Assembly (NCBI GenBank): GCA_037445205.1 | Contig: JBBIKX010000002.1 | Location: 1-56,710 of the forward strand | Direction of reading: 5' to 3' | Origin: Candidatus Wildermuthbacteria bacterium | GTDB lineage: Bacteria; Patescibacteriota; Minisyncoccia; Minisyncoccales; PEYH01 | Length of the DNA stretch: 56,710 bases | Part shown: positions 31,795-35,498 of the stretch, piece by piece | How the letters are laid out: each line of letters begins with the position of its first letter | Numbering within the stretch: the stretch's first letter is position 1 | Notes under the pieces: generated by a model | What the model was told of the DNA's origin: nothing | The model's database searches: none | What the model saw: only the letters and a program-made list of their open reading frames with translations | Made by a program: the position numbers and the translations under genes

Positions 31795-33021
31795 ATGGAA
31801 AATATCAGAAAAACAGCACCGCAGGTTTTGGAAATTATAGAAAGGGAAACCGAGCGCCAGAATGAAATGATTGATTTAATCCCCTCGGAAAACTACGTTT
31901 CTTTGGCCGTGCTTGAGGCGGCTGGATCTGTTTTTACCAACAAATATGTAGAGGGCTATCCGGGAAAAAGATATTATCCCGGATGCCAACTGGCAGATGA
32001 AATAGAACTGCTTTGCGCTAAAAAAGCAAGGGAGGTTTTCGGTCTTGACGAAAATTGGGAAGTCAATTGCCAGCCGCTTTCCGGCGCGCAGGCAAATGTT
32101 TCTGTTTATTTCGGACTTTTAAATCCGGGCGAAAAAATTCTCTCAATGACGCTTACTCACGGAGGACATTTAAGCCATGGCCACAAGGTTCATATATCTT
32201 CTCGCTTTTGGAAAGTAGCAAATTACGGGGTCAACGAAAAAGGACATATAGATTATGATGTTTTGGAAAAAATCGCGCAGAAGGAAAAACCCCGGCTTAT
32301 TGTTTCCGGCGCCACCGCCTATCCAAAAATTATTGATTTTCAAAGATTCGGCGAAATTGCCAAAAGCGTTGGCGCGTATCATCTGGCTGATATTTCCCAC
32401 ATTGCCGGATTAATTGCGGCCGGGCTTCACCCTTCCCCGTTTTCTTGCGCAGATGTTGTTATGACAACAACCCATAAAACATTGCGCGGACCCAGATCGG
32501 CAATGATTTTTGCAAAAAAAGAAATTTACGAAAAAATAAGGAAGGCGGTTTTTCCGGGCATACAGGGAGGATCGCACCAGCATATTATTTGCGCCAAAAC
32601 TGTTTCTTTTTTTGAAGCGCTAAAGCCGGAATTTAAAGAATATCAAAAACAAATTTTAAAAAACGCCCAAGTCCTCGCCCAAGAATTAAAAGATCTGGGA
32701 TTTAAGATTTTTTGCAATGGAACGGAAAATCATTTAATCCTGATTGATTTAAAAAGAACGATGGATGCAACTTGGGCAGAAAAAACTTTGGAAAAATCAA
32801 ACATTTTGGCGAATAGGAATGCTTTGCCTGATGATGTTTCGCCCTTTAGACCAACGGGCTTGCGCCTTGGAACGCCTGCCGCAACCACAAGAAATATGAA
32901 AGAAAAAGAGATGAGAACAATCGCAAATCTGATATATAGAGCCATCGGCAAAAAGGAGGCGGTTGAAACGATAAAAACAGAGGCAATTAATCTTTGCAAA
33001 AAATTTCCTATTATAAGGTAG
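31795..33021 (+). CDS. glyA: Serine hydroxymethyltransferase
   Basis: TTTHKTLRGPR PLP-lysine motif and SENYVS. Confidence 0.95.
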   Translation: MENIRKTAPQVLEIIERETERQNEMIDLIPSENYVSLAVLEAAGSVFTNKYVEGYPGKRYYPGCQLADEIELLCAKKAREVFGLDENWEVNCQPLSGAQANVSVYFGLLNPGEKILSMTLTHGGHLSHGHKVHISSRFWKVANYGVNEKGHIDYDVLEKIAQKEKPRLIVSGATAYPKIIDFQRFGEIAKSVGAYHLADISHIAGLIAAGLHPSPFSCADVVMTTTHKTLRGPRSAMIFAKKEIYEKIRKAVFPGIQGGSHQHIICAKTVSFFEALKPEFKEYQKQILKNAQVLAQELKDLGFKIFCNGTENHLILIDLKRTMDATWAEKTLEKSNILANRNALPDDVSPFRPTGLRLGTPAATTRNMKEKEMRTIANLIYRAIGKKEAVETIKTEAINLCKKFPIIR

Positions 33022-33088
33022 AATAGGCGACTTATTTTATTATTTTTATTGCCCAATTATAATGGGATTTTTATAATTTTTTTAGAAC

Positions 33089-33117
33089 TTGACTTAAAAA
33101 TATACTTCTGATATGAT
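33089..33117 (+). promoter_or_regulatory. Sigma70-like promoter (TTGACT, 17-nt spacer, TATGAT)
   Basis: Hexamers at 33089-33094 and 33112-33117 with an exact 17-nt spacer, in the AT-rich DNA directly upstream of the GC-rich block. Confidence 0.5.
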
Positions 33118-33148
33118 GCTAAAAATTTGATCTTTTAAGGGGGTATGA

Positions 33149-33598
33149 GTGAGCAAGAGAAACGAAGACGGAAGCGGTAACCCTGAAATCATGAGAGAGA
33201 ACGGGGGCCCGATAGCCTGCTTAGCAAAGGGGCGCATTGTCTTCAGGAAAGCGACAACAAAAAACCTTAGGGCGCTTGGTGTACGTGGAATGAGACCAAG
33301 ATGGGAAGAACCAGGACGCACTTTGGCGCTTCAATTAGTTACTAAGTGCGCCATTGCCTGCGAAGATTGTGCCGACCTGACATGTCTTCCGTGCCGCTAC
33401 GATCGCCGACCGAGCCAAGGGAGCTCAATGACCCTGCCCTTGGGGCTGATCCTTAAAAAGATTGGCGTTTCCCAAACAACAGTTTTGGCCGCTCCCAGAG
33501 AGGAGCGATGGGGAAGGGTACACTCAGTAGGCGCAAAAGAGATAAGAATCACCTTTCTGCGCAATCTCAAAACCCTCGATCAAGCGGGGAAAGAGTAG
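33149..33598 (+). other. GC-rich orphan unit: either a 149-aa Cys-cluster protein (GTG start after AAGGGGG) or a structured non-coding RNA
   Basis: The ORF spans almost exactly the promoter-to-terminator interval and contains CAIACEDCADLTCLPC. GC-rich DNA gives long ORFs by chance (mirror ORF 33094..33321), and I recognise no protein family. Confidence 0.3.
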
Positions 33599-33616
33599 TG
33601 CCTTGCTCTTCCCTTG

Positions 33617-33640
33617 GGGCGCAATGCGCCCTTTTTCTTT
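33617..33640 (+). terminator. Rho-independent terminator (gggcgc aat gcgccc, then tttttcttt)
   Basis: 6-bp GC stem followed by a T-run on the plus strand. Confidence 0.6.
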
Positions 33641-33647
33641 ATTATAA

Positions 33648-35498
33648 TTATTCCACGGTAACGCTTTTGGCGAGATTTCTTGGCTTGTCAGGATCAAGCC
33701 CTTTTAAAACGGAGACATGGTAAGCAAAAAGCTGGAGAGGAATTACCGATATTATGGGGGTGAGCATTTCCAAGGTTTTGGGAATATACACAACATCATC
33801 AGCCAAAGATTTCATTTCCTTGTTTCCCTGTGTGGTTATTGCGATAACCCTTCCTTGGCGAGCCTTGATTTCTTCAATATTAGAAACGATTTTCTCATAA
33901 ACGCTGTCCTTGGGACATATTGCCAGACAGGGAAAATTTTTATCAATTAAGGCAATTGATCCATGCTTCATTTCTCCGCCAGCATATCCCTGCGTGTTGA
34001 TATAAGAAATTTCTTTCAATTTCAAAGCGCCCTCAAGAGCCACCGGATAATTATATTTTCTCCCTATATAGAGGAAATTTTTAAACTTATAATATTTTTT
34101 GGCGATGTTTTTGATATCCGGAGCCAGAGACAAAGCTTTTTTTGCCAAATTGGGAATGTTTTTTATCTCTTTGGCGATTCTCTGTCCCATTACCAAAGAA
34201 AGATTTCTTTGCCTTCCCAGAAACAATGCCAAAAGCGCCAAAATTTCTACTTGAGAAGTAAAGGCTTTCGTGGAAGCGACTCCTATTTCCGGCCCGGCAT
34301 GATTGTAAATTCCTGCGTCAGTTTGGCGGGCAATGGTGGAGCTAACGACATTTACCAAGCCCAACGTTAAAATTCCCTTTTCTTTGGCTTCATTTACCGC
34401 CGCTAAAGTGTCTGCGGTTTCCCCACTTTGGGACACGGCCAAAATGGCTGAATTTTTGCCAAGGATCGGCTTGCGGTAGCGAAATTCCGAACCGATCTCC
34501 ACCTCTACGGGAACGCCTGCGTATTCTTCTATCATATATTCCCCCACCATTCCGGCCAGATATGCAGTTCCGCATCCGACAATGGTTAATTTATCAATTT
34601 CTCTTAATCTTTCTTTCACCGATTCTATCCCCCCAAGCTTTGCCATTCCCTGCTCTAAAATAATTCTTCCTCGCTGAGAATTTTCTAACGATTCGGGCTG
34701 CTCCATTATTTCTTTAAGCATAAAATGGGGATATCCGGATTTTTGAATCTTAATCAGGTTATTCTCAATATCAGAAATTTCCTTTTCTTTAATATTGTTT
34801 CCTAAATCAAAGATGGAAAAACCATCAGGATTAATGCTCGCCACCTCCCCATCATCAAGATAAATAACCCCTGATGCATATCCCAAAATAGCCGAAGCGT
34901 CTGAGGCAAGAAAATATTCTTCCTTTCCTATGCCCAAAACAAGAGGGCTTGATCTTTTGGCTCCCAATATTGTTTGGGGATAATCTTTTGACATTAGGGC
35001 AATGGCATAGGCGCCTTTAAGCAATCTCAGCGTTTTTAGAAAGGCGCTTTCCAGAGAATTGTGCCTGCTGTTTCTTTCTTTTTTAAGAAAATCTTCAACT
35101 AAATGAACTATCACCTCCGAGTCGGTTTCACTTGAAAACTTATGACCTCTCTTTAAAAGGATTTTTTTAATCTCTTTATGATTTTCAATGATTCCGTTAT
35201 GAACCAAAAAAATACTTTTAGAACAATCCCAGTGGGGATGAGCATTAATGTCATTCGGGGCGCCATGGGTCGCCCATCTTGTGTGGCCAAGGCCCATATT
35301 GCCTTCTATTTTTTTCCCCTTTATTTTTTCTTCCAGATCTTTTATTTTCCCCCTGCATTTAAAATACCGGGGGGTATTTTTTTCATCTAAAACAATAATG
35401 CCGGCTGAATCATAGCCGCGATATTCAAGACGCCTTAACCCTTCCAACAAAATAGATCTTGCTTCTTTCTGGCCAAGATAGCCGACAATTCCGCACAT
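33648..35498 (-). CDS. glmS: Glutamine--fructose-6-phosphate aminotransferase
   Basis: MCGIVGY N-terminal nucleophile, two SIS domains and C-terminal NLAKSVTVE. Confidence 0.95.
   Translation of the reverse strand: MCGIVGYLGQKEARSILLEGLRRLEYRGYDSAGIIVLDEKNTPRYFKCRGKIKDLEEKIKGKKIEGNMGLGHTRWATHGAPNDINAHPHWDCSKSIFLVHNGIIENHKEIKKILLKRGHKFSSETDSEVIVHLVEDFLKKERNSRHNSLESAFLKTLRLLKGAYAIALMSKDYPQTILGAKRSSPLVLGIGKEEYFLASDASAILGYASGVIYLDDGEVASINPDGFSIFDLGNNIKEKEISDIENNLIKIQKSGYPHFMLKEIMEQPESLENSQRGRIILEQGMAKLGGIESVKERLREIDKLTIVGCGTAYLAGMVGEYMIEEYAGVPVEVEIGSEFRYRKPILGKNSAILAVSQSGETADTLAAVNEAKEKGILTLGLVNVVSSTIARQTDAGIYNHAGPEIGVASTKAFTSQVEILALLALFLGRQRNLSLVMGQRIAKEIKNIPNLAKKALSLAPDIKNIAKKYYKFKNFLYIGRKYNYPVALEGALKLKEISYINTQGYAGGEMKHGSIALIDKNFPCLAICPKDSVYEKIVSNIEEIKARQGRVIAITTQGNKEMKSLADDVVYIPKTLEMLTPIISVIPLQLFAYHVSVLKGLDPDKPRNLAKSVTVE

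Follow-up and report, generated by a model that had tools for sequence, protein, structure and literature searches.

The window, by which we mean the whole 56,710-nt stretch of DNA analysed here, is contig C2 of a 28-contig, 539 kb genome that is rated 100% complete and belongs to a Candidatus Wildermuthbacteria bacterium; the source names of the nearest glyA and glmS homologues likewise point to Paceibacteria/Patescibacteria. At the locus of interest the genes glyA and glmS converge, with their stop codons 626 nt apart. The space between them holds a GC-rich unit with a promoter-like sequence, one long open reading frame (ORF) and a terminator-like hairpin (Table 1), and its other frames and opposite strand contain just short ORFs. 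The original prediction described a stand-alone transcription unit that makes either a protein with a cysteine cluster or a large structured RNA. At the level of sequence the stand-alone unit is supported. A predicted promoter and terminator delimit it, and no gene follows on the same strand. The parts that had been named are all in place: the promoter with its 17-nt spacer, the clean terminator, the GTG-initiated ORF of 149 aa that begins 5 nt after AAGGGGG, the cysteine cluster, and the three local helices, each of which is seen in the MFE fold.

Table 1. Features of the inserted unit and other GC-rich islands of the genome that correspond to protein genes. Positions without a contig label are those of the window.
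Feature	Position	Strand	Basis or remark
glyA stop	33019-33021	+	left junction starts directly 3'
AT-rich left junction of the insertion	33022..33088	+	sequence; alignment with relatives
Putative sigma-70-like promoter (TTGACT, 17 nt, TATGAT, TGn extended -10)	33089..33117	+	consensus match
Purine-rich AAGGGGG, candidate ribosome-binding site 5 nt before GTG	33138..33144	+	sequence
ORF of 149 codons, GTG start	33149..33598	+	intact in two strain variants; best codon-frame score of six
Hairpin GGGGAAAGAG/CTCTTCCC, whose loop contains the TAG stop codon	33586..33614	+	MFE fold
Predicted intrinsic terminator	33616..33640	+	7-bp stem (6 G-C pairs) and 3-nt loop, followed by TTTTTCTTT
Mu Gam-like gene	C9:8232-8786	-	GC-rich island
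LAGLIDADG endonuclease with HTH	C12:271-1080	+	GC-rich island
Thymidine kinase	C12:1252-1851	+	GC-rich island
PKD-domain protein	C4:14958-16028	+	GC-rich island
DPBB lytic-transglycosylase-like gene	C9:15063-15695	-	GC-rich island
DAG-kinase-like gene	C1:49356-50354	+	GC-rich island

The putative promoter matches the consensus at 10 of 12 positions, and its identification is purely consensus-based. The terminator stem occupies 33616-33632 and is followed by a T run; 8 nt separate the end of the terminator from the glmS stop codon (33648-33650, minus strand). Within the left junction a weak hairpin, CCCAATTATAATGGG, likewise precedes a T run and may serve as the glyA terminator. Neither kind of signal is enriched in the unit when compared with shuffled sequence: two promoter-like sites were found where 1.4 were expected, and one terminator-like site where 1.2 were expected. 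A 17-nt sequence, AGCAAAGGGGCGCATTG (33223-33239), shows 88% complementarity to the terminator's 3' arm and T tract (33622-33638) and also repeats the 5' arm (33229-33239 versus 33616-33626). We set aside its interpretation as an antiterminator, given that the number of such repeats is about the chance expectation.

The codon directly before the GTG of the ORF is an in-frame TGA, and an alternative start is available at an ATG in codon 15 (position 33191). Upstream of 327 long ORFs of this genome, GGAGG occurs 6 times, AGGAG 6 times and GGGGG 4 times, and the upstream regions of the long ORFs are A/T-rich. This suggests that initiation in the genome may be mostly independent of Shine-Dalgarno sequences. 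The candidate ribosome-binding site AAGGGGG carries little weight, because Shine-Dalgarno-like 5-mers are rare upstream of the genome's genes.

The spacer between glyA and glmS could be compared with that of four relatives that keep both genes. In two of them (G012 and G004, with glyA 72-73% identical) the stop codons are about 20-35 nt apart, and in the other two (G003 and G011) the 3' ends of the genes overlap. In the alignment with the relatives the extra DNA forms one clean block of about 600 nt, from about 33040 to about 33640. As glyA and glmS abut or overlap in the four relatives, this block was inserted specifically in the present lineage. Furthermore, an origin from local non-coding DNA is excluded because the ancestral spacer measured 35 nt or less. 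No convincing terminal repeats or target-site duplication were found, only AT-rich 8-9-mers and repeats at chance level. Similarly, tblastn, tblastx and sensitive blastn searches of the genome itself revealed no second copy, paralogue or source sequence.

The protein collections contain no homologue of the ORF from lineages with glyA and glmS 83-84% identical to those studied here, which fits a gain after the split from these lineages. In the same genus, the assembled part of G001 is without glyA, glmS and the unit, and among the 15 other genomes of the family that were searched, just 7 yielded glyA (relatives G001-G035).

The unit had been described as much more GC-rich than its surroundings, and indeed its GC content reaches 0.53-0.545 over 33200-33600, whereas the flanks have 0.29-0.43 and the genome as a whole has 0.396. 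There are 19 stretches of at least 0.47 GC in the window, so islands of such size are common. The accompanying argument, that GC islands in an AT-rich genome are often structured RNAs, with rnpB as the local example, does not hold in this genome. The only RNA that Rfam recognises in the window is one tRNA, and the RNase P RNA is encoded on another contig, at C7:18771-19179. In 14 other GC-rich stretches of the genome, Rfam recognised only the start of the 23S rRNA and one tRNA, and the other islands checked are protein genes (Table 1), several of which look like accessory or horizontally acquired genes. Three further GC-rich ORFs, of 172, 250 and 138 aa, are without a Pfam match (C4:14316-14834 on the plus strand, C4:13451-14203 and C7:4339-4755 on the minus strand) and may be further orphan cassettes or spurious frames. 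In the last of these the GC content of the three codon positions is flat (0.49/0.51/0.51).

The ORF had also been credited with a locally high GC3. The third position is elevated, but the elevation is not specific to it, with GC1/GC2/GC3 at 0.54/0.51/0.52 compared with 0.46/0.34/0.40 in the core genes of the genome. Similarly flat profiles are found in the Mu Gam-like gene (0.58/0.50/0.54) and in the PKD-domain protein (0.56/0.53/0.61). From the perspective of genome scans these results are a caution, in that GC-rich islands mark accessory protein genes here rather than RNAs, and the two can be told apart by a simple shuffle z-score for which the RNase P RNA and tmRNA of the same genome serve as calibration.

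A scan with Rfam had been named beforehand as a check on the RNA option. At the gathering score Rfam 15 reports nothing in the window apart from the tRNA mentioned above, and at E values up to 10 it returns only chance-level snoRNA and sRNA matches between 32900 and 33800. ARAGORN did not find a tmRNA. None of the Rfam 15 families for RNase P RNA, tmRNA, SRP RNA, 6S RNA, riboswitches, group I/II introns or large orphan RNAs matches the unit. The MFE z-scores of the unit on its two strands against dinucleotide shuffles were -0.31 and -0.06 (-0.08 and +0.54 in a re-run). With the same script, the positive controls reached -6.08 (RNase P RNA) and -6.65 (tmRNA), and pieces of mRNA gave values from -1.55 to 0.01. 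Eleven 120-nt windows across the unit ranged from -1.6 to +1.3. Excess structure is found only at the double hairpin of the 3' end, which consists of the stop-codon hairpin and the terminator (z of -2.46 over 33575-33640).

Given the lack of an Rfam family and z-scores of about 0 where the genome's own RNAs are at about -6, the unit is not supported as a large structured RNA. Of the two options originally put forward, we therefore disfavour the structured RNA, and the protein is the one favoured. Divergent forms of known RNAs were also considered. The unit is not a divergent RNase P RNA or tmRNA, as the genuine genes are located at C7:18771-19179 and C23:1931-2305, respectively, and both the small (RF00169) and the large (RF01854) SRP RNA models miss it. 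These two models have no match anywhere in the genome, rated complete as it is, and its SRP RNA is perhaps missing from the assembly or has diverged beyond what they can detect.

The predicted product is basic, with 27 K+R against 15 D+E residues, and its cysteine cluster reads C67-x3-C71-x2-C74-x4-C79-x2-C82. Searches of Pfam, NCBIfam and the PDB sequences with the whole protein and four sub-fragments returned nothing, nor did searches of PHROGs and PADLOC with the product. Among about 15 billion proteins it is without a homologue except for two strain variants encoded beside the same glmS. An exhaustive HMMER search of 5.8 billion clusters and 1.84 billion representatives recovered only its own 90% cluster, which has three members. 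DNA and six-frame searches matched nothing in 60 relatives or, apart from two weak chance-level hits of 29-30 nt (E of 0.003-0.008 per genome), in 400 genomes of the phylum. GTDB representatives, JGI metagenomes, IMG/VR, phage records and plasmid records likewise contain no match.

Its ESM Atlas recognition is 2066, below 2300, a mark that 91% of known-family proteins but just 9% of shuffled ones attain, and its best match scores 0.78. The single-sequence AlphaFold model has a pLDDT of 42, too poor for a fold search. Three specific assignments were rejected. An excisionase-type HTH (HTH_17, PF12728) starting at LILKKIGVSQTTV (locally KKIGVSQTTV) failed a profile test, in which a profile built from 30 HTH_17 domains of relatives scored -3.0 bits over 8 residues of the 51-residue domain, with an hhalign probability of 2.7%. 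C67-x3-C71-x2-C74 resembles the CX3CX2C of radical SAM enzymes by spacing alone, with no Pfam or NCBIfam match, and 149 aa are too few for the barrel. The CX2CX2CX3CP spacing of 4Fe-4S ferredoxins is absent from the product.

Is the frame itself a coding frame? A frame open over the full 447 nt of the plus strand was seen in 13 of 12,000 shuffled frames. In a more lenient test, which accepts at least 150 open codons in any of the six frames of the 523-nt unit, 4.3% of shuffles qualified, and so it is moderately unlikely that the ORF arose by chance. Codon-frame scores, computed as log-odds from 261 long training genes, rank the ORF frame first among the six (+0.103, with the other two plus-strand frames at -0.009 and -0.084). 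Its score lies some 2 SD under the average for real genes (0.216 ± 0.057, minimum 0.044) and above any frame of the RNase P RNA and tmRNA (at most 0.058). A score of 0.103 is reached by 3.5% of single shuffled frames and by 11% of shuffles when the best of six frames is taken. Three-base periodicity gives a chi-square of 11.6 (p 0.07), at the 13th percentile of real gene pieces, whereas the RNAs give about 2-3. We consider this intrinsic evidence for a real ORF to be weak to moderate. The RNase P RNA gene provides a useful comparison, because an ORF of 118 codons lies antisense to it (C7:18827-19183, minus strand) and spans 87% of the gene, which shows how easily GC-rich RNA genes in this genome can mimic ORFs.

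The most informative evidence is the strain comparison. The two variants, P0002 and P0003, are the other two members of the ORF's 90% cluster. P0002 is encoded on a 10,937-nt contig, and the glmS found on a contig of identical size matches the glmS of the window at 501 of 519 positions. For P0003 the contig has 6,433 nt, and the corresponding glmS matches at 615 of 616 positions. Given glmS proteins this similar on contigs of exactly the same sizes, we place the variants in the same context in closely related strains. A copy of the neighbouring nucleotidyl-transferase, identical at 377 of 392 positions, is present in another NCBI assembly.

All 149 codons are kept in both variants, with five replacements in P0002 and one in P0003, and no indel or stop occurs in the ORF across the three strains. 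Per non-synonymous site, pN is 0.0147 for the ORF and 0.0140 for glmS. All six cysteines are invariant, even though two of the replacements, A68T and A70T, fall between C67 and C71. The six replacements (33269, 33350, 33356, 33413, 33419 and 33587) can all be explained as purine transitions at codon position 1, as deduced from the variant proteins rather than from variant DNA. Given the possible non-synonymous transitions, the chance that all six fall at this position is 0.01-0.03. Such a pattern would be expected if selection at the protein level purges second-position changes. None of the six is conservative (three R/G, two A/T and one S/G), compared with 24 of 33 in two neighbouring proteins.

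In a neutral simulation, five or fewer replacements without a stop came up in 34% of runs at 2% divergence. The share fell to 7.7% at 3% and to 0.2% at 5%, and from 8% upwards no run gave this outcome. The result thus depends on how far the strains have diverged at neutral sites, and we infer that a neutral divergence low enough for an inert sequence is unlikely.

Taken together, we think with moderate confidence that the unit is a recently acquired, self-contained orphan protein gene, restricted to this lineage and carried on a cassette. It is the strain comparison and the frame statistics that favour the protein, which is as yet unproven. In this scenario, about 600 nt of DNA of foreign composition, presumably from a foreign source, would have entered the small gap that separated the convergent glyA and glmS, after the split from the relatives with 83-84%-identical glyA and glmS and before the present strains diverged. 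The predicted promoter would probably drive transcription of the cassette, with the predicted terminator ending it, and the product would probably be a translated, strongly basic protein of 135-149 aa. For the cluster of five cysteines (CX3CX2CX4CX2C) we consider metal binding the most likely role, be it of Zn or of an Fe-S cluster. With its positive charge, the protein may bind nucleic acids or an acidic partner.

Several observations count against a protein: the lack of a family match, the low ESM recognition and pLDDT, the flat GC content across codon positions with a GC2 of 0.51 where the genome has 0.34, the weak three-base periodicity, the non-conservative replacements, and the long spurious ORFs that GC-rich RNAs carry in this genome, such as the 118-aa frame antisense to RNase P RNA.

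An unlikely alternative is that the unit is an inert relic, a piece of foreign or decayed DNA still awaiting deletion, in which the ORF, the promoter-like site and the hairpins are fortuitous and the three strains have simply diverged recently. This would explain why relatives are found nowhere and why the composition is unlike that of the host, and it is consistent with promoter-like and terminator-like motifs no more frequent than in shuffles, with non-conservative replacements between strains, and with an ORF length that reaches only p of about 0.04 in the most lenient test. A neutral model is viable if neutral divergence is 3% or less. Such a low divergence would imply a pN/pS of about 0.5 for glmS, yet glmS is 62-69% identical across many Patescibacteria. 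Retention of useless DNA would also be unusual in a genome of 0.54 Mb in which the neighbours of the unit otherwise abut or overlap, pointing to strong deletion pressure, and three strains without an indel or stop in the frame argue in the same direction.

We regard as quite unlikely a more far-reaching possibility, in which a gene gained very recently by this small, tightly packed genome is already as strongly conserved as glmS and is the founder of a new metal-binding family that is essential or strongly beneficial, or else in which that conservation belongs to a new kind of regulatory RNA of 0.5 kb with little structure.

It is improbable, in our view, that the unit functions as a non-coding RNA, about 0.5 kb long and poor in stable secondary structure, acting for example as an antisense RNA, sponge or scaffold, with the open frame as a by-product of its GC content. 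The presence of a promoter and terminator without a same-strand gene downstream would suit such an RNA, as would the flat codon-position GC, the weak periodicity, the absence of protein relatives and the poor ESM and pLDDT values. The genome's GC-rich RNAs do carry spurious ORFs of more than 100 codons, and the visible strain differences, all of them A/G transitions, would preserve pairing with U. However, the z-score is near 0 where the structured RNAs of this genome are near -6, Rfam is empty, and no DNA match exists in 60 relatives or 400 genomes of the phylum. A non-coding RNA would also leave unexplained that the full-length frame is kept in three strains, that replacements are confined to codon position 1 (p 0.01-0.03), and that the ORF frame has the highest codon score of the six.

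Least probable, and indeed very unlikely, is membership of a known family from which the product has diverged so far that the searches overlooked it (for instance zinc-ribbon or HTH regulators, ferredoxin-like proteins, or a trans-acting replacement for the HypA zinc domain), because the resemblance of the cysteine cluster, the basic charge and KKIGVSQTTV to a metal site and an HTH turn is set against empty Pfam, NCBIfam and PDB searches with the whole protein and four sub-fragments, an HTH_17 profile score of -3 bits with an hhalign probability of 2.7%, and a cysteine spacing unlike that of ferredoxin (CX2CX2CX3CP) or of the zinc site of HypA, where some 12 residues separate two CxxC motifs.

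It is useful to compare the unit with known systems. With the large structured RNAs (RNase P RNA, tmRNA and the large Rfam orphans) it shares a length of a few hundred nucleotides, a high GC content within an AT-rich genome, and a promoter and terminator, which in the unit are predicted. Unlike them, it has a z-score of about 0 rather than -6, no covariance-model match and no conservation beyond the strains.

The preferred reading, an acquired protein gene, has a counterpart in phage morons, which are independent transcription units added between conserved genes and are recognised as extra relative to related genomes, with deviant GC content and their own promoter and terminator (PMC3594210). 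Similarly, the unit is an addition relative to its relatives, has a GC content unlike that of its neighbours and contains a single small ORF; its own promoter and terminator are predicted by sequence match only. Unlike morons, it is located between the chromosomal housekeeping genes glyA and glmS and not in a phage or prophage, with no phage genes nearby and no match in phage records, IMG/VR or PHROGs.

The predicted gene also resembles ORFans, or taxonomically restricted genes (PMC12315717, PMC2275313), in that it is short and has no homologue beyond a very narrow lineage. Patescibacteria genomes are rich in hypothetical genes, and another orphan of this ordinary kind is unsurprising. What makes the case a clean one is that the ancestral, abutting arrangement of glyA and glmS is visible in relatives, so that both the insertion and its age bracket are defined. 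According to earlier studies discussed in PMC12315717, ORFans are GC-poorer than conserved genes, whereas the unit is GC-richer than its host. Unlike ORFans that arise from local non-coding DNA, it cannot have formed in place, as the ancestral spacer was at most 35 nt. Finally, the non-synonymous divergence of its ORF is not fast, in contrast to that of ORFans, and is as low as that of glmS; this orphan appears to be as constrained as a core enzyme.
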